Source: an uncultured Methanosarcinales archaeon (GTDB lineage Archaea > Nanobdellota > Nanobdellia > Woesearchaeales > DSVV01). From it: a stretch of DNA of 40,221 nt. Within the stretch, counting starts at the first letter, position 1, and every line of letters begins with the position of its first letter. A program made the position numbers and the translations under genes. The notes below the pieces were generated by a model. The model did no database searches. It had not been told where the DNA came from and was given only the letters and a program-made list of their open reading frames with translations. The stretch spans positions 12,885-53,105 of the forward strand of contig CAZPXC010000002.1 in NCBI GenBank assembly GCA_964590935.1, given 5' to 3'. This document shows, piece after piece, positions 3,086 to 35,765 of the stretch.

Positions 3086-4075
3086 TTAATTTCCCTGTTT
3101 TGACTCCTGATTTATGTAAGTAATGTTCGGCTTTTCTGTTGGCACATTCTTGTCCGGCCTTGATGCCAGATTGAACCTCACGAGGCGTTTTGCAGGCCCC
3201 TGCACAGAGCCCTTGACAATGATATAATATCCTTTCACGTCGCCGTACCTGATAAAGCCCCCCTTTGGATTTACTTCTTCAGGTTTGTCCGATACCTTGA
3301 GCAGCCATTTGTTATACTCTGTCCTGGTGTGATAGCCTGTCTGGCCTGCATGCGCGATCCTGTACATGAAATGTCCCTGTGCTTTCCATCCGCCCAATGA
3401 ACCGGGATTCCTCCTGGCTTTCTCAGCCTTGTGCGATGTGAGGCCTATACCGAACCTCTTGACCGGCCCCTGAAAACCCTTTCCCTTGGTGACAGCGTGA
3501 AAATCGAGCAACTGCCCTTCATCAAAGACATTGTTGACAAAAACCTCCTTGCCAAGGTTCTCCTTTGCAAACTTAAGCCTGTCCTCGTTTGAGCCTCCGA
3601 GCGCGACCTCGAAGAGTTCCGGCTTTTTCTTGCCTACTGCACTCATCTTCGGCTGGGTATATACATTTACCCTGATATCATAATAATCAGCAGGATTCAG
3701 GCCCTCGAGCTTTTTCTCGTCTGGCTTTTTTGGCGAAGGTATCTTCCTCTTCAGCTCATTGTCGACCTTGCCGTAGATCTCGTCTTTCAGCTTCAGGCCG
3801 GATGCATCCAGCTTGTAGAGCCTGATGGAAGCTATCTTTAATGGCGGGCATTCGATGACTGTTGCCGGTACAGCGACCTCCTCTCCCTTGCTCTTTGAGC
3901 GCTTTCGGTTTTCAAGATAGGTAAGAGTGGTCATGCCTGCCTTGTATCCTGCAAAGCCAAGAAGTTTTGCCTTGCCCGAGCTGGGCCAGGACTTGACTCT
4001 AGCATAAGCTCTCTTGGCCCTTTTCCTTGGCCAGTACTGCATTGAACCGTGTCTCGGTGACCTTGTTGTAGGCAT
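3086..4075 (-). CDS. rpl3: ribosomal protein uL3 (L3)
   Basis: 329 aa. PRHGSMQYWPRKRAKR, FAGYKAGMT, VTKGKGFQGPVKRFG and HAGQTGYHTRTEYNK are archaeal uL3 hallmarks. It is the first gene of the operon. Confidence 0.95.
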   Translation of the reverse strand: MPTTRSPRHGSMQYWPRKRAKRAYARVKSWPSSGKAKLLGFAGYKAGMTTLTYLENRKRSKSKGEEVAVPATVIECPPLKIASIRLYKLDASGLKLKDEIYGKVDNELKRKIPSPKKPDEKKLEGLNPADYYDIRVNVYTQPKMSAVGKKKPELFEVALGGSNEDRLKFAKENLGKEVFVNNVFDEGQLLDFHAVTKGKGFQGPVKRFGIGLTSHKAEKARRNPGSLGGWKAQGHFMYRIAHAGQTGYHTRTEYNKWLLKVSDKPEEVNPKGGFIRYGDVKGYYIIVKGSVQGPAKRLVRFNLASRPDKNVPTEKPNITYINQESKQGN

Positions 4076-4737: not shown

Positions 4738-4810
4738 GTGATACGCTTAATGTTAAGTAAAATTCTTATGTGCTCATCTGGCATTAAGGAAATTTATATT
4801 TTATTTTTAA

Positions 4811-5123
4811 TCGTGCAGGTGAAATTTTTTCATACTCCAAAATGGAACATTTTTGGTACCCTAAAAATCTAATAGATTTTTATGGTTTCATGGCTGCAAA
4901 CTGGCTTCTACACGGCGCTGAGGGCGCCTGCCAGTTTGCGCCATGAAAAAATTTCAATTTGAGTTGCCCTTCGGGCTAGCTTGTTGCACTTACAGAAAAA
5001 ATCCAGCCACGGCCGGGCGTAGCTGACCATGTTCTCTTGCGAAGCGAGAGGTTATGGTCAGCGAAGTAGGCCGCTGAACCGCAAGTTCGTGGCCGTCCGT
5101 GCCCTGGGTGGATGGATTTTTTC
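4811..5123 (+). repeat. structured intergenic repeat family, copy A (candidate ncRNA or MITE-like element)
   Basis: The core hairpin at 4889-4945 is homologous in structure to 15481-15533 and 35446-35498. There are extra triloop hairpins at 4838-4859 and 4863-4881. A 16-bp stem (4995-5010 with 5108-5123) encloses a nested 9-bp (5022-5030/5054-5062) and 7-bp (5034-5040/5044-5050) hairpin. Confidence 0.6.
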
Positions 5124-5220
5124 TTGACTCGAATAAAAAGAAATCAAATTAGAAACCAGGCATAACGCCAATAAAACATTTCAATACAATCCATTCAAAT
5201 TAGGTTGCATAAAATCTAAA

Positions 5221-5236
5221 CGCCGAGGCGGGGATT
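5221..5236 (-). repeat. duplicated tRNA-Ser 3' end (16-nt direct repeat of 5326-5341)
   Basis: cgccgaggcggggatt occurs at 5221-5236 and again at 5326-5341. The second copy is the T-loop to 3'-acceptor end of the tRNA. I could not fold a cloverleaf around the first copy. Confidence 0.7.
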
Positions 5237-5325
5237 CCCAGAGTGCGGTAGCACGATGGGGGCCGGGAAACTTGTTTCCCGAGCATGTTCAAATCCCAAG
5301 GTTGTTCCATAAACAGAATAAAATA

Positions 5326-5448
5326 CGCCGAGGCGGGGATTTGAACCCCGAAGACCAAAGGTCACAGGATCTTTGCAGATAATGCGTGGTTTCATACCGG
5401 CCATGGTCGATAGCAATCCTGCGCAGTACCAGATTGTGCCACCTCGGC
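5326..5448 (-). tRNA. tRNA-Ser (anticodon GCU) with a 40-nt intron after position 37
   Basis: The minus strand reads GCCGAGG-TG-GCAC..CTGC-G-CAGGA-TTGCTA[intron 5371-5410]A-TCCTG-TGACCTTTGGTCTT-CGGGG-TTCAAAT-CCCCG-CCTCGGC-G. That gives a 7-bp acceptor, 5-bp anticodon and T stems and a 14-nt long variable arm, i.e. class II. The anticodon is at 5412-5414. Confidence 0.85.
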
Positions 5449-5614: not shown

Positions 5615-5827
5615 ATGGCAAAAACCATTAAAGTGAAGAAAGTAGGTGTCAAGAAAAAGGATGGCTACTTATACTTCGTCGATAAGAAAGGGGACATCTC
5701 CATGGTCAAGATGAACCGTGGCGGCAAGAGGAAAAAGAAGAAAAAAGCAGCGAAGAAGAGAAAACCTGCAAAGAAAAGGAAGCCGGCCAAAAAGAAAAAA
5801 GCAGCTAAAAGGAGACGAAGGAGATAA
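5615..5827 (+). CDS. small polybasic protein: roughly 33-aa beta-rich N-domain plus a K/R tail
   Basis: 70 aa. MAKTIKVKKVGVKKKDGYLYFVDKKGDISMVKM is followed by GGKRKKKKKAAKKRKPAKKRKPAKKKKAAKRRRRR. A GGGGTGAT Shine-Dalgarno lies 5 nt upstream, with a TATA-like ATTTAAATATAA further upstream. Confidence 0.6.
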   Translation: MAKTIKVKKVGVKKKDGYLYFVDKKGDISMVKMNRGGKRKKKKKAAKKRKPAKKRKPAKKKKAAKRRRRR

Positions 5828-5883: not shown

Positions 5884-6046
5884 GCTTCATCCAAAAACTC
5901 GCTAACGCTCGGGTTAGCATCGGCTTCGGTCTTGCTCATTCATCTTGAAGAGTTGGTATCCCCGCAGGGGACAACCCCCTCCCAACTTTAAAAATATTCT
6001 CGAAGGGCCTACGCGTATTGATGCTAACCTTCTTTTTGGATGAAGC
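5884..6046. mobile_element. 163-bp MITE-like palindromic element
   Basis: The terminal inverted repeats are bipartite: gcttcatccaaaaa (5884-5897) with tttttggatgaagc (6033-6046), and ggttagcatc (5912-5921) with gatgctaacc (6020-6029). A 44-nt half copy is at 13265-13308 (36/44 identical). Confidence 0.45.
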
Positions 6047-8961: not shown

Positions 8962-9650
8962 GGTAAGCTGTAACGGTTCTTGTCCTTTTTGATCCTGCCT
9001 TCTTTGAGCAGCGCATCAAGGAAGACCAATACATGCTTCTCAGGCATGCCAGCGTTCGATGCCAGGGTCTTGACATCCTTGGTCCCATCCTTGAGCAGCA
9101 TCATGATTATGTTCCTGACCAGCGTTGCGCCGTTTTTCTTGACGACCTTGTTCTCGGCGCTGAGATTCTTGATGACCATGTCCACCTTGTGCAGTCTTCC
9201 CTGCAGGTCATTAAGAAAATCTGTGAACTCATGTGAACTGTAGACCAGGCTTTCGGGTTCCATTATCTCTACTGATGCTGGCATATAATCAAAGCAGAAC
9301 CAGACCAGCTCCTCTACGCCCTGCACCTCGAACTCAAGCTCTGAAAAAACGTTGAAGAGCTTGCTGCCTTTCTTTTTCTCTGCCTTGCTGGTGTAATCCT
9401 TAAGGACCGTTATGCCCTTGTGCTCCTCCTTGATCTTATCGACGTAAAGCTTTAGCGTATCCTCGATATGCTTTTTTGGGGCACCCATCATCTGTATTAT
9501 GGCCCTTACGACCACTTTTTGATCCTTGGTCATGATTGCATTAGAAATCATGACAGTCTTATATAATTTTCGAATGTTGTAGGTAAAGTTGTTAGGTTTT
9601 TTAATGTAGATTTCTTGAAGGTGTGATTGAAATTTTTTCATTAAGGACAT
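8958..9650 (-). CDS. hypothetical protein with a possible C-terminal winged-helix; N-terminus uncertain
   Basis: 230 aa. The C-terminal LASNAGMPEKHVLVFLDALLKEGRIKKDKNRYSL looks wHTH-like. The first ~13 codons (9611-9650) are 94% identical to the 5' arm of the intergenic repeat family, so the true start may be an internal Met (MISNAIMTKDQK). Confidence 0.55.
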   Translation of the reverse strand: MSLMKKFQSHLQEIYIKKPNNFTYNIRKLYKTVMISNAIMTKDQKVVVRAIIQMMGAPKKHIEDTLKLYVDKIKEEHKGITVLKDYTSKAEKKKGSKLFNVFSELEFEVQGVEELVWFCFDYMPASVEIMEPESLVYSSHEFTDFLNDLQGRLHKVDMVIKNLSAENKVVKKNGATLVRNIIMMLLKDGTKDVKTLASNAGMPEKHVLVFLDALLKEGRIKKDKNRYSLP

Positions 9651-9696
9651 ATTTAGAAAGCTGACTTAATAAAATGATAATAATGTTTTACCCGTT

Positions 9697-13264: not shown

Positions 13265-13308
13265 AAGGGCCTGCCGGTATCGATGCTAACCTGGTTTTAG
13301 GATGAAGC
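13265..13308. repeat. solo half-copy of the 5884-6046 MITE-like element
   Basis: aagggcctgccggtatcgatgctaacctggttttaggatgaagc matches 6003-6046 at 36 of 44 positions without gaps. No partner arm is nearby. Confidence 0.55.
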
Positions 13309-15377: not shown

Positions 15378-15703
15378 TTTCTTGAAGGTGTGATTAAAAT
15401 TTTTCCATTCGGCGGCTGGTCCGGCTTAAACACATTAGAATATATTTTTTTGATAGTGCAATGAAATTTTTCCATCCACTGGCTGCAGGAGTCGCTTAAA
15501 CACGGCACTGCTGGTGCCTGCGACTCCTGCGCCTATGGAATATAATAATTCCGCCGTTTTAAAACAGGCGGAATTATTATGGTCGGAGAAAACTGACGCA
15601 GTCAGTTTTCGATTGACAAATTTCTGTTTGAGAAGCCCTCCGGGCCTGCCTCTTGCACTGGAAGGAAAATGACCGTCGAAGCCATGGGTGGCTGGATTTT
15701 TTC
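15378..15703 (+). repeat. structured intergenic repeat family, copy B (partial 5' duplication plus a full unit)
   Basis: Partial unit at 15378-15433. The full unit has hairpin 1 at 15481-15533, hairpin 2 at 15542-15580 (14 bp) and hairpin 3 at 15588-15610 (10 bp, triloop). Ends tccatccac (15471-15479) and gtggctgga (15688-15696) are inverted. Confidence 0.65.
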
Positions 15704-15760
15704 TACATACAAATAGAACAGTATCAAAATCATACTTAGAAACTTTACTTGGCACGGGCA

Positions 15761-15773
15761 AAAGATTTAAATA
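15761..15773 (+). promoter_or_regulatory. BRE/TATA-like AAAGATTTAAATA
   Basis: The same 13-mer recurs at 28777-28789 and 38255-38267, and as cAGATTTAAATA at 26889-26900. Each copy is upstream of a gene start. Confidence 0.45.
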
Positions 15774-15838
15774 AAATGTTAATCTGCAGATAGTACAATA
15801 AAAAGAGGGCTGATAATAATAATGCATGATGCACCACA

Positions 15839-16969
15839 ATGAAAATAATATGCTATGTTCTCATGATCCTGCTGGCAGCGTTCATAGTTGCCGGAGTTGA
15901 TGGTTCGTTCAGGCTGAAGGTCTGCAAGGACCAGGCATGCACGATGGAATCGACAGTGTTCCTGCAGCACAGCAATATCTACTTCAATTACGAGTCGTCA
16001 GAAGAGGTTCTTTCCGCAGCGGCAGTGCTTACTTATCCTGACGGCAAGACTATGAAGCTAAAGCTGCCGGCATCGATAAAGGCAGACCTGATGGGGCCTT
16101 ATGTCCTGGAGGCCACGGCAGTTGCAGGCGGAACAATAAAACAGACCAAACGCTTTGGCGTGATAGAGGCACCGGCACAAAACCTGCAAAGCGAGCCTGC
16201 ACAGGAAAAAAAGGAAAAGGAGCAGGCAGCGGTGCCGGACCAGCCAGCAGTGACCAATGACCAGCCAGAAACAGGCCTGACTGACCTGATGGTACCGCAG
16301 AACAGGACCAACAAGAACGATTCCTTGATGGACAATGAGCTTCTCTTAGGGATATACATGATGGGGGGATTGCTGGCCCTCTTCATCGCTCTCTATCTTA
16401 TCGTCCGCTGGAAAAACAGGAGCAGAGACAAGGCGCATCCGAGAAAAAGCCTCAAAGAGTTTGCAGAGGACCATGACGTGCTCCACCCGCATAAGTATAT
16501 GAACAAGATCGTAAGCTACATAAGCTCGTCGCTGGAGCAGGGCTATTCAACAAAGGATATCTATGACCATCTGCGCTCAAATGGCTGGAAGGAAAAGCAG
16601 ATAAACGAGGGATTCAGGAGATACAAGCTGCTGGGAAGCTATCATGAGATGAAAGACAGCAACATGCCCGAGAAGGAGATAAAGAAGGCGCTCTTGAAAG
16701 ATTACAGCCGGGCACAGATAAGGGAGACGCTCTCGCACCATTCAGCCATACTTGGCAGGGATGCGACAGAGGAGGACAGGATGAGGCACCTGCATGAGCT
16801 TGCAGAGGTCCACGAGGTCCACAAGGCAGAAGGCAACCTGGCAAAGCTCCAGTCTTACATATCAAAGTGCTACAGCCATGGATACAGCCGTCAGATGATA
16901 AGGGATACCCTGATCGACAAGGGCTGGTCTGCGGAGACCGTAGACAAGGCGTTCGAGCTGTTGAGGTAG
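15839..16969 (+). CDS. bitopic membrane protein: small extracellular domain, TM helix, cytoplasmic tail with three helical repeats
   Basis: 376 aa. N-terminal signal or anchor MKIICYVLMILLAAFIVAG. Second TM LLLGIYMMGGLLALFIALYLIV followed by RWKNRSRDK (positive-inside). Tail repeats: YISSSLEQGYSTKDIYDHLRSNGWKEKQINEGF, EKEIKKALLKDYSRAQIRETL and YISKCYSHGYSRQMIRDTLIDKGWSAETVDKAF. Confidence 0.7.
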   Translation: MKIICYVLMILLAAFIVAGVDGSFRLKVCKDQACTMESTVFLQHSNIYFNYESSEEVLSAAAVLTYPDGKTMKLKLPASIKADLMGPYVLEATAVAGGTIKQTKRFGVIEAPAQNLQSEPAQEKKEKEQAAVPDQPAVTNDQPETGLTDLMVPQNRTNKNDSLMDNELLLGIYMMGGLLALFIALYLIVRWKNRSRDKAHPRKSLKEFAEDHDVLHPHKYMNKIVSYISSSLEQGYSTKDIYDHLRSNGWKEKQINEGFRRYKLLGSYHEMKDSNMPEKEIKKALLKDYSRAQIRETLSHHSAILGRDATEEDRMRHLHELAEVHEVHKAEGNLAKLQSYISKCYSHGYSRQMIRDTLIDKGWSAETVDKAFELLR

Positions 16970-28812: not shown

Positions 28813-29106
28813 ATGATTGGCAGTGAAGGCTATATTAACAATGGGAAGCCAATGCTGATATACACTTATTCTACAGAGCATCTGCTGAAAAAAGATAAGG
28901 TGAGGTTCTATTATGCCCTCAAATGCCGGGACGGGAAATCCGGTATTGTCAAGGAACTGAAGATAGTGCATCTTGGAAGGACCGTGCTCATGGTCGATGC
29001 CAGGCACGAAGAGGATATGGTCCAGTTCTTCAAGCTGTGGAACCTGCCCTATACCAGACGAAAGGCGATCGTAGATGATGATGTGCTGAGGGGTGGACCG
29101 CCATGA
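28813..29106 (+). CDS. small conserved-looking protein translationally coupled to the giant surface protein gene
   Basis: 97 aa from ATG 28813 (MIGSEGYINNGKPMLIYTYSTEHLLKKDKVRFYYALKCRDGKSGIV...). The track's TTG 28756 start lies inside the promoter. Its stop overlaps the giant gene ATG (ATGA at 29103-29106). Confidence 0.6.
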   Translation: MIGSEGYINNGKPMLIYTYSTEHLLKKDKVRFYYALKCRDGKSGIVKELKIVHLGRTVLMVDARHEEDMVQFFKLWNLPYTRRKAIVDDDVLRGGPP

Positions 29107-32100
29107 GAAGGCAGTATATGCTCCTTGCGATGCTGATCATCGCCGCTGCCAGCGCACAGGCTGCACAGTACTCTGTCTGCAGTACGGGCTGTGATTTCAC
29201 GAACATCACAGGTGCCCTGGAGAACGTGACCGGGACAGGGAACACGCTCTTCATCAACGGGTCAGGCACATACAACATGACCAACACCACTACGTTTTTT
29301 GTATATGCTGCCTCCAGCAACGGCGGGTTAAGTGTAAACGCGTCCGATGTAATCCTTGAATGTAATAATGTAAGCATTGCCGGCAACAGCACAGGATACG
29401 GCATCTTCGTGACTGCAGATAATGTCACTGTCCACAATTGCCAGGTCAGCAACTATACCCAGGGGATAAGGATCCTGGGCTCTTCACAGGACTCGGTAGT
29501 ATCAGGCAGCATTATCTCTGATTCTGATTACGGCCTCTGGGTGAGCGCCTCAAATTATACCCTGATAACCGGATCAACTATAAGTTCAGCCGCATCCTCG
29601 GCTGTGCAGTTTGCCAATGGCGCAGTCAACAACACGCTGCTTAACTGCATCATCCAGAGCTCTGTGCAGGACATAAGCTCAAGCGGCACAGGCAGCTCTA
29701 ATCTCGTGGTAAACAGCTCATTTGACGGTTCCAAATCCACAAATGTCCAGGACAGCTCCCGTGTATTCGTAAAATGGTACTTCCGCGTCTTTGTAAATGA
29801 CACATCAGGCAACCAGGTCAATGCCACAGTAAATATCAGCGACAGCTTCTCTACATTGGCATATTCACTGCAGACAGATGCAAGCGGCTACACTGCAGAG
29901 AAGAACATCACAGAATACATGAGAAACAGCAGCTCCTCTTCAATATTCTACACCAACTATACGTTCTATGCCTATAATTCTACTAATTTCGAGAACAGCT
30001 CTGTCAATGTAACAGGCTCTGGAACTATTGTACTGACTTTCGACCTTACTGCGCCGCAGATATCCGGCATCCAGAATTCGACAAGCAACGAGTCTGTCAA
30101 TATCACCTGGACAACAGATGACCTAAGCAACTCAAGCATCAGATGGGGCAATTCCTCTGCCAGCCTGAACAATGCACTTTCCAACAGCAGCATGACGAGG
30201 GTACATTTCATAAATATCTCTGATGAATATTCAAATAAGACCCACCTGGATGCAAACACGACATACTATTTTAACATCACTTCCTGCAATGACCAGGGCT
30301 TATGTACAGAGGCAGGGGTGTTTAATTTCACCACAAACACGACAATCGACAGATCAGCCCCTTCTGCCAGCAACATCGTCAACACAACAACAAATGAATC
30401 TGCATTGATAACATTCGACACTGATGATAATGCTAATGCGACTGTCGAATACGGGACTAATGTTTCTATGACACTGTCTACAGGAAATTCAAGCTATAAT
30501 CAAAACCATACGTTCAATATAACCGGCCTGAGTGATAATACAACATATTACTACAATATCACTGTATGCAACGGGGACCAGTACTGCAATGAGTATGGCA
30601 GCTATAATTTCACGACCAACGCAACAATAGACTATTCTGCCCCGGTCATAAGCAATATTCTCAACACAACGACAAACGAGTCTGTGCTAATAACATTCGA
30701 CACTGACGACAATGCTAATGCGACTATCGAATACGGGACCAATGTTTCTATGACACTGTCTACGGGAAATTCAAGCTATAATCAAAACCATACGTTCAAT
30801 ATCACTGGCTTGGATTCCAACACGACATATTATTACAATATAACCGCATGCAATTCAAATGGGAACTGTACAGAGCAGGGCGTTTATAATTTCACGACCA
30901 ACCAAACAACCCCAGACACATCAGCACCTGTTATAAGCAATATCATGAACACAACAACAAATTCCACAGCAACAATAACATTCGACACTGACGATAGTGC
31001 AAACGCTACCATCAAATACGGCACAAGCACATCACTGGGCTCTTCTGCAAAAAACAGCACTCTTGCCCATAATCATTCATTCAGCATCACCGGGCTGGAC
31101 TCCAACACCACATATTACCTCAACATAACCGCATGCAACTCATATGATAACTGCACAGAGCAGGGCACCTATAGCTTCACGACCAACGCAACAATAGACA
31201 CCTCTGCCCCGGCAATAAGCAACATCATCAACACAACAACAAATTCCACAGCAACAATAACATTCGACACTGACGATAGTGCAAACGCTACCATCAAATA
31301 CGGCACAAGCACATCACTGGGCTCTTCTGCAAAAAACAGCACTCTTGCCCATAATCATTCATTCAGCATCACCGGGCTGGACTCCAACACCACATATTAC
31401 TACAACATAACCGCATGCAACATCTATGGCTACTGCAGCGAAGACGGGACATACAGTTATCAGACGAATACCACTCCTGATCAGAGCCCGCCTGTGATAT
31501 CTTCTGTATCCAATTCCTCGATAACCAACATAAGCGCTGTGATATCCTGGACAACGAACGAGGCAGCGAACAGCACTGTCAAGTACGGCACATCATCGGG
31601 CAGCTATACTGCTTCAAAGGGCAGCGCAACGATGACGACAAGCCACAGCGTCACCCTCACAGGGCTCTCTGATGAGACGACATATTATTATGCTGTCAAC
31701 AGCTCTGATGCCAGCGGCAACTCTGCACAGGGCTCGGAAAAGAGCTTTACGACATCTGATTCGACCCCGCCTGTGATAAGCAGTGTCCAGAGCTCAGGCG
31801 TCATGGGAACTTCTGCCACTATCTCATGGACCACGGACGAGACTGCCGATTCCCAGGTGAAGTACGGCACCACGAGCAATTCATATTCTCATTCAAAATC
31901 GACAACAGGGTATTTCACCAACCACAGCATCGCGCTGAGCGGCCTTTCGGGGGACACGACCTATTATTATCGCGTGGTCAGCAACGATTCTACCGGGAAC
32001 TCTGCCCAGAGCAGCCAGGGCAGCTTCACCACTACGGATACTGAAGCACCATCAATAACCTTCACATACCCTGTAAATGCCTCGACCACAGTCGCTGATG

Positions 32101-35100
32101 TCAAGAACGTGAGGCTGACAGTGACGACAGACGAAGCTGCTACATGCACAGCGACCAGCTACAAGATAGGCTCCAGCGTAACTTCTACAGATAAGGTGCT
32201 TACGCCCGCAAACGCAAACAATGTCAGCCATACTGCATATTTCAACGCAACATCGGAGTCATCCGGCTATAATTTCTATTTCACTGTCCAGTGCATAGAT
32301 TCAGAAAGCAACAGCAGGACAAGCACAGTGTATTTCAAGCTTGACGACACGACAGCCCCAACTGCAACTTTTGTCTCGCCCACTCCGGCAGACGGCTCAG
32401 TCAAGGACAGCGAAAACCTGACAGTCAAGCTGAGCGTGAGCGAGGGGCAGGCATCAGGCTATCCGAAGCTGAGCATCGACGGCGGCTCAAATGCCAGCAT
32501 GACAAGCAGCAGCGGCTATTATACATACACCAAGAAAGACCTTTCCGAGGGCAGCCACAACTTCACTGTCTACCTCTCTGATGCGTATGGTAACAAGCGC
32601 TCATATACTAGGGACTATACAGTCGATACAGAGGCTCCGGACTTTGATGAGATGTATCCTGAGGATGATGATGTTATCAGCAACTGCATGGACCTCGTCC
32701 TTAACATCACCCTTGATGAGGAGGCTGACTGCCAGTATGTCCTTTATGAATACAGGGAGGAAAAATACGACAGCTGCATAGATAACTGCGATGAGGATAA
32801 GACCTCATGCAACGATGATGAAGACAAGACCACCACCGAATGCAACGATGATTATGACACTTGCGAGAGCGACTGCGATGATGATAAATACAGGGAGAAG
32901 AAGAGCGGCGACCTGAAAGAGGAATACGGGGTAGAGGACTGCAAGAATGACTGCGACGATGTGGAGGACAGCTGCGTCGATGACTGCAAGGACGAAAAGG
33001 CAACATGCATAGAGGGGGCATCCGACAGCAGTGATAGAGACGACTGCACGAGTAATTATGAAGACTGCAAGGATTCGTGCTCTGACGATAAGGATGACTG
33101 CTATGACGACTGCAACACAGGAAGCTTCTTCTACGTGGAAAAATTCGACACCACCTGTCTTGCAGACGGGGACTACATGGCAGAATACACCTGCGAGGAT
33201 AACGCGTCAAACGTGGGTGAGGAGAACGTCACGTTCACCATGAGCGACACCACAGCGCCGGAAATCGTCTTGACGAGCCCGAACGGCACCATCGAAAAGT
33301 CCAGCACAAAGCTGAGCGTGACAACAGATGAGTATGCAGTATGCAGGTTCTCTGAGAGCAACGTGGGCTATGGATCCATGAACTATACATTCATAGGCAA
33401 CACCAAGACGCACACCTACACATTGGGAGGACTTGAGAACAAGGACTACCAGTTCTATGTGCTGTGCAACGATTCAAACGGCAATGTGATGGACAATGCG
33501 GAAAAGATCGCGTTCACTGTTAGCAGCTCCACAGCTTCATCATCAGTATCACATGGGTTCAAGACGATGAAAGCAGGAGAGTCGCAGTCATTCATCATCA
33601 GCCAGACAGACATCCCGGTCACAAAGATCACGGTCACGGTGAATGAGGACGTGCAGGCTGCAAACATCAATGTCAAGAAACTGTCCGATACCTCAAGCAT
33701 CAAAAAGCCTTCAAAGCCTGTATACCAGTACATCGAGGTGACCAAGGACGGAATATCGAACAAGCAGATCGCCAAGGCGACCATCGATTTCATGGTGCCG
33801 AAGTCATGGCTCGATGACAACGGACTGAAGCCCGAAGATGTGTCGCTTTTCAGGTATACCACGACCTGGGAGGAGGTGCCCACGACAAAGATAAGCGAAG
33901 ACGGCAATAATGCATATTACCAGGCCGAGACCACTGATTTCAGCGTCTTTGCGATAATGCCGGACGGCGTCCAGGCAACTACGACGACGACAAAACAGGC
34001 GACCCAGAGCAGCGATTCACAGGCAAAGACCGCCGCATCTTCCCCTGATAACAGCAGCAAAGAGGCCAGCGTCGAGCAGCCGGCAGATGTTGCTGAAAGT
34101 GGCGGCAGCTATACATGGCTTATCATTCTTCTATGTGTTGTGGTTGTGGGAGGTGGCTCAGCAGTCTTTTACGTCTATAAGTCACATAGACACCCCCAAC
34201 AAGACTCCTTTGCTGAAGCACATAAGCAACCAACACACTCAGCTGCAGCAGGCGAGAGATCTACTTCTCAGTCGGCTCTCTCTGCTGCAGCTTCATTATC
34301 ACCAGAGCAGGTCCAGGAGGCTGAATCTGCTGTGAGGCCGGACGATGAGCTTGGGCAGTACATCGTCGCCTCGCTGAAAAGCGGCCAGGACATCCAAGCT
34401 GTAAAAAAAGCTCTGCTCGATGCGGGCTATGACGAGGACAGCATCGGAGCAGAACTGGCCGAACTGAAGCTTGCAGACCCGCTCGCTGATTACATCAAGA
34501 CCGCGCTCGAGGCAGGCCAGGAGCTTGACGTGATAAAAAACGGGCTTATAGATGCAGGCTACGGCCCGCAGGATGTCGTGAACAAGTTTTCCGACATGGG
34601 CCTAGCAAAGATGGACTCTGGCCGGCAGGACATGGAGATAAACGATTACATAAGAGCATCTCTGGGGTCCGGGATGAGGCCAGGAGATATAAAGCAGGCG
34701 CTGCAGGATGCAGGCCATGATCCGGGCCATATAGACGAGCTTATGGCTGCATTTGAAAGCCCGCAGCCGGCAGAGAGTGGCGAAACAGTGGAGCAACCGC
34801 CCGAGGAAAGTGCCCAGGTTTCGGAACAGCAATCGCCTGAAGAACAGGCACAGCCAGAGGATGCTGATGCAGAGATAAAGGAATATATTACAAAATCTTT
34901 TAGAGCTGGAGAGGACGCTTCGCAGATAAGGACAGCTCTTGTCGGCGCCGGCCACGGTCCGGAAAAGGTCGACAGGCTCATCTCTGGTATTGTGGAAGGT
35001 TCAGGGACGCAGCAGCCTCAGGAAGAGCAGGAAAAGGCAGAGCCTGCCAAAACTGATGCAGAACAGGAAAAACCGCAGAGCGCAGAAGACCACACTCCCA

Positions 35101-35375
35101 AGCATGACGAGGTAATGGATTATATCAAGGACGCGACAGAAGACAGGGTCCCCAGAAGGGTCATCAAGACCGCGCTCGTGAAGGCAGGCCACAGCAAGAA
35201 GGAGATAGACAAGAGGTTCAGGGAGATAGACACAGCGCAGAAGAAGATGGAAAGGGACATAAGGCAGTATTTCAGGATAGGAAAGAAAGAGGGCAAGACA
35301 AAGAAGCAGATAAAGGAAGACCTGATAGATTCCGGCATAGACGCCAGGACCATCAGGAAGATCGCCAAGGTCTAG
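29103..35375 (+). CDS. giant (2090 aa) cell-surface glycoprotein or adhesin with a TM helix and cytoplasmic repeat tail
   Basis: Order of parts: signal peptide MRRQYMLLAMLIIAAASAQA; beta-helix-like N-domain (CSTGCDFTNITGAL...); about 7 FN3-like modules (SAPxISN...ITFDTDD...YGT...NITGL..NTTYYYNIT); Ig-like DTxAP modules; a Cys/Asp-rich insert; a PGF-pre-PGF-like domain (VYQYIEVTKDG...DFSVFAIMP); a Thr-rich linker; the TM helix WLIILLCVVVVGGGSAVFYVY; and a roughly 398-aa tail. Confidence 0.9.
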   Translation: MRRQYMLLAMLIIAAASAQAAQYSVCSTGCDFTNITGALENVTGTGNTLFINGSGTYNMTNTTTFFVYAASSNGGLSVNASDVILECNNVSIAGNSTGYGIFVTADNVTVHNCQVSNYTQGIRILGSSQDSVVSGSIISDSDYGLWVSASNYTLITGSTISSAASSAVQFANGAVNNTLLNCIIQSSVQDISSSGTGSSNLVVNSSFDGSKSTNVQDSSRVFVKWYFRVFVNDTSGNQVNATVNISDSFSTLAYSLQTDASGYTAEKNITEYMRNSSSSSIFYTNYTFYAYNSTNFENSSVNVTGSGTIVLTFDLTAPQISGIQNSTSNESVNITWTTDDLSNSSIRWGNSSASLNNALSNSSMTRVHFINISDEYSNKTHLDANTTYYFNITSCNDQGLCTEAGVFNFTTNTTIDRSAPSASNIVNTTTNESALITFDTDDNANATVEYGTNVSMTLSTGNSSYNQNHTFNITGLSDNTTYYYNITVCNGDQYCNEYGSYNFTTNATIDYSAPVISNILNTTTNESVLITFDTDDNANATIEYGTNVSMTLSTGNSSYNQNHTFNITGLDSNTTYYYNITACNSNGNCTEQGVYNFTTNQTTPDTSAPVISNIMNTTTNSTATITFDTDDSANATIKYGTSTSLGSSAKNSTLAHNHSFSITGLDSNTTYYLNITACNSYDNCTEQGTYSFTTNATIDTSAPAISNIINTTTNSTATITFDTDDSANATIKYGTSTSLGSSAKNSTLAHNHSFSITGLDSNTTYYYNITACNIYGYCSEDGTYSYQTNTTPDQSPPVISSVSNSSITNISAVISWTTNEAANSTVKYGTSSGSYTASKGSATMTTSHSVTLTGLSDETTYYYAVNSSDASGNSAQGSEKSFTTSDSTPPVISSVQSSGVMGTSATISWTTDETADSQVKYGTTSNSYSHSKSTTGYFTNHSIALSGLSGDTTYYYRVVSNDSTGNSAQSSQGSFTTTDTEAPSITFTYPVNASTTVADVKNVRLTVTTDEAATCTATSYKIGSSVTSTDKVLTPANANNVSHTAYFNATSESSGYNFYFTVQCIDSESNSRTSTVYFKLDDTTAPTATFVSPTPADGSVKDSENLTVKLSVSEGQASGYPKLSIDGGSNASMTSSSGYYTYTKKDLSEGSHNFTVYLSDAYGNKRSYTRDYTVDTEAPDFDEMYPEDDDVISNCMDLVLNITLDEEADCQYVLYEYREEKYDSCIDNCDEDKTSCNDDEDKTTTECNDDYDTCESDCDDDKYREKKSGDLKEEYGVEDCKNDCDDVEDSCVDDCKDEKATCIEGASDSSDRDDCTSNYEDCKDSCSDDKDDCYDDCNTGSFFYVEKFDTTCLADGDYMAEYTCEDNASNVGEENVTFTMSDTTAPEIVLTSPNGTIEKSSTKLSVTTDEYAVCRFSESNVGYGSMNYTFIGNTKTHTYTLGGLENKDYQFYVLCNDSNGNVMDNAEKIAFTVSSSTASSSVSHGFKTMKAGESQSFIISQTDIPVTKITVTVNEDVQAANINVKKLSDTSSIKKPSKPVYQYIEVTKDGISNKQIAKATIDFMVPKSWLDDNGLKPEDVSLFRYTTTWEEVPTTKISEDGNNAYYQAETTDFSVFAIMPDGVQATTTTTKQATQSSDSQAKTAASSPDNSSKEASVEQPADVAESGGSYTWLIILLCVVVVGGGSAVFYVYKSHRHPQQDSFAEAHKQPTHSAAAGERSTSQSALSAAASLSPEQVQEAESAVRPDDELGQYIVASLKSGQDIQAVKKALLDAGYDEDSIGAELAELKLADPLADYIKTALEAGQELDVIKNGLIDAGYGPQDVVNKFSDMGLAKMDSGRQDMEINDYIRASLGSGMRPGDIKQALQDAGHDPGHIDELMAAFESPQPAESGETVEQPPEESAQVSEQQSPEEQAQPEDADAEIKEYITKSFRAGEDASQIRTALVGAGHGPEKVDRLISGIVEGSGTQQPQEEQEKAEPAKTDAEQEKPQSAEDHTPKHDEVMDYIKDATEDRVPRRVIKTALVKAGHSKKEIDKRFREIDTAQKKMERDIRQYFRIGKKEGKTKKQIKEDLIDSGIDARTIRKIAKV
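30348..31478 (+). repeat. four tandem 282-285 bp coding repeats (FN3-like modules) inside the giant gene
   Basis: Units start at 30348, 30630, 30915 and 31197. Positions 30948-31118 and 31230-31400 are identical over 171 nt. Units 1 and 2 are roughly 90% identical by eye. Confidence 0.9.
34341..35372 (+). repeat. six divergent cytoplasmic protein repeats (about 35-aa core, helix-rich) in the giant protein tail
   Basis: The six cores are YIVASLKSGQDIQAVKKALLDAGYDEDSIGAEL, YIKTALEAGQELDVIKNGLIDAGYGPQDVVNKF, YIRASLGSGMRPGDIKQALQDAGHDPGHIDELM, YITKSFRAGEDASQIRTALVGAGHGPEKVDRLI, YIKDATEDRVPRRVIKTALVKAGHSKKEIDKRF and YFRIGKKEGKTKKQIKEDLIDSGIDARTIRKIA. Confidence 0.8.
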
Positions 35376-35412
35376 ATTTGTGGTTTCATGATATTCTCTG
35401 ATGTTGTTTTTT

Positions 35413-35627
35413 CTTGATAGTGCGAGAGAAATTTTTCCATCCACTGGCGGCTGGTTCGGCTTAAACACGGCACTGATGGTGCCTGCCGAACCAGCGCCAA
35501 TGGAATATAATTATTCCGCCGTTTTAAAATAGACGGAATTATTATGGTCTGAGAAAACTGACATAGTCAGTTTTCGATTGACAAATTTCTGTTAGAGCAG
35601 CCCTTCGAGCTGGCTTGCTGCACAGAA
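35413..35627 (+). repeat. structured intergenic repeat family, copy C (3'-truncated)
   Basis: Hairpin 1 at 35446-35498, hairpin 2 at 35507-35545 and hairpin 3 at 35553-35575 are collinear with copy B. It starts right after the T6 run (35407-35412) that follows the giant gene stop. Confidence 0.65.
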
Positions 35628-35765
35628 AGAAAGATGTGCAAAGACAGAAAAGATGGAGTTGAGCTATAGGTATATCTTTATCCAGCACCGGGGATCAGTA
35701 TATCATATTATAGAAAAGACCGCCTTTCGAAAAATATAAAAACAAAGGAGCATACTGTATACAAT

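Follow-up and report, generated by a model that had tools for sequence, protein, structure and literature searches.

Copies and architecture of the repeat

We analyzed a stretch of 40,221 nucleotides (nt) from an uncultured archaeon (assembly GCA_964590935.1, contig CAZPXC010000002.1, positions 12,885 to 53,105 of the forward strand; hereafter the window), which carries a structured intergenic repeat. An earlier note had described three same-strand copies of this repeat, with a core hairpin whose lower stem differs between copies but remains paired. The copies, here called A, B and C, lie at exactly 4811-5123, 15378-15703 and 35413-35627, between open reading frames (ORFs). They neighbor a NUDIX gene together with the L3/L4/L2 ribosomal operon, a deoxyhypusine synthase gene and the gene of a 2090-aa surface protein. 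We recovered the exact lower stems of copies A (gcaaactggc at 4896-4905 and gccagtttgc at 4930-4939), B (gcaggagtcgc at 15485-15495 and gcgactcctgc at 15520-15530) and C (gctggttcggc at 35450-35460 and gccgaaccagc at 35485-35495). As claimed, the upper stem is GGCGC/GCGCC in A and GGCAC/GTGCC in the other two copies, and we also found the GGC...GCC clamp, the single base bulged after GGC and the 8-nt loop TTAAACAC (TTCTACAC in A) that faces a lone T. Both the 14-bp hairpin (15542-15555/15567-15580) and the 10-bp triloop hairpin (15588-15610) of copy B recur in copy C. We counted three occurrences of the core pattern GCTTNNACACGGCNCNNNNNGNGCCTGC in the window, against an expectation of 0.01, and the three copies present fold z-scores of -9.0, -7.4 and -5.4 relative to shuffled sequence. 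In copy B, a 5' half-unit (15378-15433) precedes a full unit starting at 15445. A fourth, fragmentary copy is located at 9600-9641, bringing the density to three copies and one fragment per 40 kb.

By mapping module seeds, we found that the order of the modules is fixed across all loci (designated below by L numbers). The element is ~190-700 nt long and starts with a 5' unit, M0 (AATGTTGATTTTTTCTTGATnGTGCnnnnGAAATTTTTCCATCCACTGGC), which can be followed by an optional insert, A5, as in copy A. A long A/T stem, P1, forms by pairing of GAAATTTTTCCAT and ATGGAAAAATTTC and bears on its tip M1, the core hairpin flagged by the earlier note. In M1, the clamp (GGC/GCC), the bulge, the internal loop (8 nt against 1 nt) and the upper stem (5 bp) are constant. 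The optional module M2, which comprises the 14-bp and triloop hairpins of B and C, is inserted into the 3' strand of P1 in the long forms. Then comes M3, made of AAATTTC, a variable stretch, GAG, a GCCC-TTC-GGGC hairpin and TTGCAC, which can be separated by an insert of ~165 nt from M4, the 3' domain that ends in a T-run. The closing stem of M4 is terminator-like (GAAAAAATCCAGCCAC/GTGGATGGATTTTTTC); it forms a bare hairpin in L022, L053 and L055 and elsewhere encloses a three-way junction with conserved unpaired bases (GRARUAGG and CCGUC). The sequence (G)TAG precedes both hairpins of M4 and does not precede the core hairpin. Perfect hairpins are present or absent as a whole, at fixed positions. 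The sequences GAAATTTTTCCATCCAC and GTGGCTGGATTTTTTC, previously taken for imperfect inverted ends, are internal stem strands and not element ends. The features of the window copies are the following.

4752-4771, - strand: left outer inverted-repeat motif of copy A, reading ACATAAGAATTTTACTTAAC on the - strand, from a fuzzy motif search; the outward TATA box of the NUDIX/L3 operon comes after it
4821-4833, + strand: P1 5' strand of copy A (GAAATTTTTTCAT), pairing with 4943-4955 (minimum free energy fold and alignment to model R1)
4834-4891, + strand: insert A5 of copy A, with small hairpins, also present in L034, L035 and L053 (module map)
4892-4942, + strand: core hairpin M1 of copy A, with GGC clamp, bulged T, GC, box AAACTG/CAGTTT, GC, loop TTCTACAC, GGCGC/GCGCC and opposing T (sequence, pattern search and model R1)
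4943-4989, + strand: P1 3' strand of copy A (ATGAAAAAATTTC), then M3 with its GCCC-TTC-GGGC hairpin and TTGCAC; the model R1 match in copy A covers 4873-4989 (95 bits)
4995-5123, + strand: M4 of copy A, with closing stem GAAAAAATCCAGCCAC/GTGGATGGATTTTTTC and a three-way junction that has G·U pairs and conserved bases; a T-run forms the end
9600-9670, + strand: solitary fragment, M0 (9600-9641) directly followed by the outer motif ATTTAGAAAGCTGACTTAAT (9651-9670), assigned through repeat family D7 and the identical contig L056
15334-15371, + strand: left outer inverted repeat of copy B (GGTTAAGT ... TAAGTATGAT), from flank comparison; it overlaps the deoxyhypusine synthase stop codon, and TAAGTATGAT matches the reverse complement of 15728-15737
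15378-15433, + strand: tandem 5' half-unit B1 of copy B (repeat families D7, D8 and D17), with M0, left arm GGCGGCTGGTCCGGC and loop TTAAACAC, ending abruptly before the upper stem
15445-15480, + strand: M0 of copy B, including the P1 5' strand GAAATTTTTCCAT (15463-15475)
15481-15533, + strand: core hairpin M1 of copy B, the feature under study, with box AGGAGTC/GACTCCT (model R1, 64 bits)
15536-15617, + strand: M2 of copy B within the P1 3' strand, with the 14-bp hairpin (15542-15580) and the triloop hairpin (15588-15610)
15618-15658, + strand: distal P1 3' strand (AAATTTC) and M3 of copy B
15661-15703, + strand: M4b of copy B, the remnant of M4 after a deletion between GAAGGAAAA repeats, with terminal GGGTGGCTGGATTTTTTC
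15734-15753, + strand: right outer inverted-repeat motif of copy B (ACTTAGAAACTTTACTTGGC), from motif search, just upstream of the next gene's promoter-like AAAGATTTAAATA
35407-35445, + strand: M0 of copy C, including the P1 5' strand (35428-35440)
35446-35498, + strand: core hairpin M1 of copy C, with box TGGTTCG/CGAACCA, whose left arm is the second commonest type in the family
35504-35654, + strand: M2, M3 and a small GCAC/GTGC hairpin of copy C, which has no M4 and is truncated after CAGAAAAGAT; the model R1 match in copy C covers 35428-35623 (67 bits)

Family size and genomic context

A metagenome scan with the core pattern yielded at least 40 loci, all of them in sample Ga0315535. No archaeal copy was detected with a loose version of the pattern in 185,579 representative genomes of the Genome Taxonomy Database (GTDB), which indicates that the lineage is not represented there. 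The L3 and deoxyhypusine synthase of the window are closest (~60%) to those of metagenome-assembled genomes of Woesearchaeota, Nanoarchaeota and Micrarchaeota. A Logan contig that assembles the same organism independently stops just past the deoxyhypusine synthase gene, exactly at the start of copy B, as usually happens where a repeat interrupts an assembly.

All copies are intergenic and occur in either orientation relative to both neighbors. The 146 ORFs flanking 40 copies (~225 kb) matched 191 Pfam families, and none of the 25 commonest of these families has more than four members, i.e., there is no conserved neighbor. Some of the copies are enclosed as a whole by an outer inverted repeat, whose left part is GTTAAGT..TTTCTAAGT and whose right part is ACTTAGAAA..ACTTAAC. 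These outer repeats are situated just upstream of outward-facing TATA boxes, the window sites being 4752-4771, 15734-15753 and 9651-9670. Searches of viral contig, plasmid and phage collections returned no match, and we found no description of such an element in the literature. The earlier note had recognized no known RNA family in the repeat, and Rfam 15 agrees: the copies had no match at the gathering threshold in a scan of the whole window, and only sub-threshold noise was obtained at E <= 10 over A and B.

Conserved secondary structure

We measured covariation in P1, M1 and M3 using 12 copies, including a diverged one presented below, and in M4 using 11 copies. The copies are mutually related, such that the following structure statistics are not strict probabilities: in P1 and the core hairpin, 94.8% of the cells are paired and 10 pairs have changed on both sides, a number that none of 500 shuffles reached (4.9 +/- 1.2 in shuffles); in M4, 96.9% of the cells are paired, with 15 pairs (9.7 +/- 1.5 in shuffles) and 43 cells (16 +/- 2.8 in shuffles) changed on both sides, and no shuffle reached these pairing and two-sided change values. 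When the strands of P1 and the core hairpin were slid as controls, at most 51% of the cells paired. The copies thus form a real repeat family with conserved secondary structure, with covariation in P1 and the core hairpin and stronger covariation in the 3' domain.

The + strand of complete elements folds better by a mean of 11 kcal/mol (12 of 13 copies; p = 0.0007). Several G·U pairs of M4 are invariant or nearly so, e.g., columns 36-75 present one in 11/11 copies and columns 38-73 in 9/11. Because of these conserved G·U pairs, the + strand is probably transcribed.

We considered several more specific structures. A pseudoknot between the 8-nt loop TTAAACAC and the variable stretch preceding the GCCC/GGGC hairpin was rejected: the loop is nearly constant and the stretch hypervariable, with no matching changes. 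K-turn, H/ACA and C/D guide RNA readings do not fit an internal loop of 8 nt against 1 nt (UUAAACAC/U), which by eye has no GA/AG tandem, and no snoRNA-type Rfam match rose above noise. Finally, hammerhead, signal recognition particle (SRP) Alu-domain and 5S-like readings were supported neither by the sequence, as inspected by eye, nor by Rfam.

Reassorting stem types and rearrangements

Across the 43 copies compared, the variable box of the core hairpin (6-7 bp) takes a few discrete forms. Its left arm is AAGCCC in 20 copies, TGGTTCG in 13, AATTCG in six, AAACTG in two and AAGGCC and AGGAGTC in one each, and locus L058 contributes a further arm, AAGTTG. The box is perfectly paired in 28 of the 43 copies. 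In the other 15, the arms are chimeric and a left arm faces a right arm of another type, e.g., AAGCCC/CGAACCA or AATTCG/GGGCTT. Random re-pairing of the arms would produce 10.6 +/- 2.4 perfect copies. The excess of perfect copies therefore shows that the arms are linked, as common descent alone predicts; yet they reassort often. P1 likewise presents three matched stem types. We asked by eye whether a chimeric right arm pairs with the left arm of the upstream half-unit, and this fails in seven of eight cases.

These counts modify the view that the stems change in sequence while always staying paired. The covariation is real, but the family as a whole comprises ~7 discrete self-complementary box types rather than gradually compensated stems, and the lower stem is broken in 15 of 43 copies by mismatched arms of two types. 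Copies with uncompensated stems, which the earlier note had named as counting against its own proposal, are therefore frequent.

Further rearrangements were observed around the palindrome. Copies that have no hairpin are joined exactly at GGC|GCC (...CACTGGC|GCCAATG... in L024), and L051 also has no hairpin (...TTGGCTGCCAATG...). L049 carries P1 and the hairpin in inverted orientation with respect to the flanks. Of 39 copies, 17 have one or two additional 5' units in tandem, located ~75 nt upstream. Many of these units, including B1 of the window, break near the hairpin apex (...GGCACTG|TAATGTTGA...). The 3' end of copy B is a deletion derivative of M4. These rearrangements are DNA-level events centered on the palindrome, and they fit either crossover in the 28-bp constant center or breakage at the center of the palindrome followed by repair.

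A diverged homologue

One copy, in L058, belongs to a related lineage whose L3 protein is 73% identical to that of the window. This copy scores 98 bits with the family model and retains every stem through two-sided changes. It differs from the main family by at least seven compensated pair changes, as seen in the following parts.

P1 stem: GAAATTTTTCCAT/ATGGAAAAATTTC in the main family, GGGAATTTTTCCTT/AAGGAAAAATTCCC in L058
Variable box: e.g., AAGCCC/GGGCTT in the main family, AAGTTG/CAACTT in L058
Upper stem: GGCAC/GTGCC in the main family, GGTGC/GCACC in L058
8-nt loop: TTAAACAC in the main family, TTTGACAA in L058

The bulged T after GGC, the 8-nt/1-nt loop, M3 and the junction motifs of M4 (GAGTAGG ... 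CCGTCGAGCC) are all kept. In L058, the copy is flanked by a tRNA gene with an intron and by the L3 operon, as is copy A in the window, in the opposite orientation. No copies were found beside deoxyhypusine synthase or L3 in more distant relatives (L057 and L059-L065).

Several other sequences of these loci deserve mention. The 3' domain of the L058 element (3322-3442, - strand) also matches the domain-1 model on the opposite strand (29 bits), from which it follows that the two domains share a common plan of A/T stem, GGC clamp, inner hairpin and GCCC/GGGC hairpin. The tRNA gene of the window (5326-5448, - strand; Rfam tRNA, 42.9 bits) contains a 42-nt intron and was missed by ARAGORN and by the whole-window scan at gathering thresholds; the same tRNA lies upstream of the L058 copy. 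A nearby sequence on the + strand (5205-5300), starting with gccgaggcgggg, resembles the 5' part of this tRNA and may represent half of a tRNA or some other small RNA. Upstream of the L3 operon, related archaea present a conserved leader (L058 3640-3850, L060 1300-1440 and L062 9820-9960) with the motifs gtgtttaaa..., gcctgaaaag...tttttcag and ...gcaaatagg, which may be a ribosomal-protein leader structure.

Comparison with known repeats

Bacterial interspersed mosaic elements (BIMEs) are high-copy intergenic mosaics of imperfect palindromes and linkers in a set order, which form stable transcript hairpins, often at the ends of transcription units. Our element is similar to BIMEs and to repetitive extragenic palindromic (REP) sequences in being a high-copy, intergenic and ordered mosaic of palindromic units. 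It differs from them by the lack of sequence similarity, its archaeal host, its much larger size and its three-way-junction domain with covariation and conserved G·U pairs. Moreover, no RAYT was found among the 25 commonest Pfam families of the flanking ORFs, a set outside of which single-member families lie; this set is the scope of all statements on flanking families below.

The repeats BOX (boxA-boxBn-boxC of S. pneumoniae), Correia/NEMIS (Neisseria miniature insertion sequences) and ERIC (enterobacterial repetitive intergenic consensus) also have a variable number of internal modules, a feature paralleled here by the extra 5' units. They further resemble our element in their predicted long and stable RNA folds, in encoding no transposase and in lying beside promoters or terminators. 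The fixed module order and the one to three tandem 5' units make the element BOX-like, by analogy only. However, the sequences and hosts are unrelated, and our element nests hairpins at the tips of hairpins and has one module with discrete, reassorting, self-complementary stem types.

Transposable elements of the miniature inverted-repeat type (MITEs) are likewise small, non-coding, multi-copy and intergenic, and some copies of our family have inverted repeats near their ends or are truncated or rearranged. In contrast to MITEs, no target-site duplication could be defined, no parent insertion sequence (IS) sharing the ends was detected in the window ORFs scanned or among the commonest flanking families, pairwise flank comparison did not recover the outer repeats in most copies, and internal conservation follows an RNA-like structure instead of being restricted to the termini. 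Of the MITE-like origin that the earlier note had left open, the high copy number and mosaic make-up fit; target-site duplications could not be defined and no transposase was present among the commonest neighboring families.

Integron attC sites also vary in hairpin sequence while keeping their structure, with extrahelical bases, an asymmetric loop and recombinant forms. Our hairpin differs in having diverse housekeeping neighbors with no gene cassettes and no integrase among the flanking families, in being embedded in a larger conserved element and in lacking an R/L box consensus. HEARO (the IscB omega RNA) and the IS605-orfB motif are similar as structured RNAs of several hundred nt with many copies per genome, but no IscB, TnpB or TnpA lies adjacent among the flanking families, and there was no Rfam match at E <= 10. 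No tnpA, tnpB or iscB domain was detected in the window ORFs scanned or among the commonest flanking families.

In the GTDB scan described above, the loose core pattern had only 15 matches, all bacterial, and we discarded them. Eight stem from a four-way-junction repeat of Rhodovibrio/Rhodospirillales that is not related to ours and in which a distal GTGTCGAAG is the pairing partner of CTTCGACAC; the resemblance arises because the search pattern itself imposes it. This bacterial repeat (L001, L003, L006, L008, L010, L012, L014 and L015) has no Rfam match and the structure CTTCGACACGG[hairpin]TGCTCAGCATGA[hairpin]TCATCCTGAGCAG[hairpin]CCGTGTCGAAGG. Bacteria are known to carry structured interspersed mosaic repeats; the present family, the group of its host and the two-domain, RNA-like architecture with reassorting stem types appear undescribed.

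Interpretation and alternative explanations

With somewhat better than even confidence, we interpret the element as a modular repeat that occupies intergenic sites in high copy number in a Woesearchaeota-like DPANN archaeon, i.e., a dispersed and recombining mosaic that encodes a structured RNA. As DNA, it would be comparable to BIME, BOX, Correia or MITE sequences. Its + strand would be read into a highly structured RNA, with a transcript that may span from near GAAATTTTT to the GGATTTTTT run. The copies probably keep exchanging parts through ectopic recombination and through breaks at the apex of the core palindrome. The constant parts of M1 look like a protein recognition site, which suggests a putative protein partner; the box between them would be free to vary provided that it is paired, with a few palindromic types reassorting among copies.

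Several observations weigh against this interpretation. Domain 1 alone folds with hardly any preference for a strand (18 of 31 copies; p = 0.07), with 97 G·U pairs on the + strand and 70 on the - strand, and the RNA-type signal is therefore carried by M4 and not by the flagged hairpin. The hairpin domain could act purely as DNA, and the selection on RNA that had been proposed for this particular hairpin is not supported, as the domain folds about equally well on either strand. The outer inverted repeats were found in only ~40% of copies by motif search, and pairwise flank comparison did not find them in most. The ends are not sharp and no target-site duplication can be defined: the lone candidate, ACTTT(T)G, is in L043, and none is evident at copy B. 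No transposase, integrase or reverse transcriptase was found among the flanking families, and the window ORFs scanned contain no transposase domain. Upstream of the 5' unit, we saw no consistent promoter with a B recognition element (BRE) and TATA box. Finally, copy A and the L058 copy share their position between the tRNA gene and the L3 operon, which could reflect a functional RNA gene long inherited vertically, instead of mobility.

The main rival explanation is that the copies are true, non-mobile structured RNA genes (trans-acting small RNAs, or cis-acting punctuation or terminator RNAs) that were duplicated and remain under selection at the RNA level, with the broken copies being dead paralogues. 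Covariation in both domains, the invariant G·U pairs, the + strand folding bias, the 3' T-run, the conserved unpaired junction bases and 8-nt loop, and the homologue found at the same tRNA/L3 site at 73% L3 identity would all be expected of such genes. It is more difficult to reconcile them with a lower stem that is broken in ~35% of copies, with the absence of whole domains in many copies, and with at least 40 copies that have no conserved neighbor and no consistent promoter. In addition, the element at the syntenic site is oppositely oriented in the two lineages, and no copy was found beside the same genes in slightly more distant relatives. We regard this explanation as possible but rather unlikely.

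Alternatively, the core hairpin may function as single-stranded or cruciform DNA, as the site of a recombinase or of an HUH/Y1 transposase (REP/RAYT, IS200/IS605 or attC-like), and crossovers at its apex would then generate the chimeras and half-units. Its near-perfect palindromic stems with a bulge and an asymmetric loop recall attC sites and the ends of IS608. The lack of strand bias in the hairpin domain, the reassortment of arm types and the half-unit breakpoints near the apex (GGCACTG|TAATGTTGA) agree with such a site, as does the (G)TAG before both hairpins of M4, since REP elements carry a GTAG motif. However, no Y1/HUH transposase, integrase or gene-cassette array was found among the commonest families near the copies, and recombination in the 28-bp constant center, or breakage at the palindrome center, explains the chimeras without a dedicated enzyme. 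The adjoining M4 also bears RNA-type signals. We consider a dedicated DNA site improbable.

That the repeats are fragments of paralogous genes on the - strand (ORF 15435-15839, 134 aa) is very improbable, and this ORF is effectively refuted as a real protein: it spans copy B and its frame is partly open in several other copies, but the frame is interrupted or shifted in most copies, its only other match among 5.8 billion predicted proteins itself comes from a copy of the element, whole modules are gained and lost, and conservation tracks base pairing and not codons.

A more ambitious version of the mosaic interpretation is also conceivable, although we hold it to be a long shot. The element would be a new two-domain structured RNA class on a dispersed DPANN element, in which the variable box would serve as a specificity code to a partner and the breaks and exchanges at the apex would be the footprint of a dedicated recombination or mobilization machinery rather than of a passive instability of palindromes. 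The code would match each copy or subfamily to its partner protein or nucleic acid.

Other repeats and features of the window

We also observed a second family of hairpin repeats at 5884-6046 of the window (+ strand), with a half copy at 13265-13308. Other members are found in L021 (2537-2570), L029 (5352-5379), L031 (862-1025) and L051 (1-30). In its closing stem, GCTTCATCCAAAAA..GGTTAGCATC pairs with GATGCTAACC..TTTTTGGATGAAGC around ~100 nt, and the GGTTAGCATCGGCA segment is similar to the core hairpin's left half (GGCTTAAACACGGCA). This second family directly abuts the 5' unit of the main element in L029, L032 and L045.

Other repeats are located in ORFs. Positions 1-225, in an ORF region at the edge of the window, comprise five tandem 45-nt repeats with 79-98% identity (families D2 and D4). 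In ORF 29103-35375, tandem repeats of 282-285 nt (30340-31870) encode the FN3/purple-acid-phosphatase-N-like domains of the 2090-aa protein. Finally, a small ORF at ~5617-5826 (+ strand), whose C-terminal half is extremely rich in Lys and Arg (KKKKKAAKKRKPAKKRKPAKKKKAAKRRRRR), is preceded by a good TTTAAATA box.

Significance

DPANN archaea have small and little-studied genomes, and almost nothing is known of their non-coding RNAs or repeats. If the density of the window held genome-wide, elements of 200-700 nt with several copies per 40 kb would represent a noticeable share of the genome. The family also visibly breaks metagenome assemblies. It offers a natural case for separating the true compensatory evolution of RNA stems from the reassortment of ready-made palindromic modules. 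Should the three-way-junction domain M4 be a functional RNA, it would constitute a new family of RNAs; a hairpin that serves as a recombination site would point to an unknown mobilization system in archaea.

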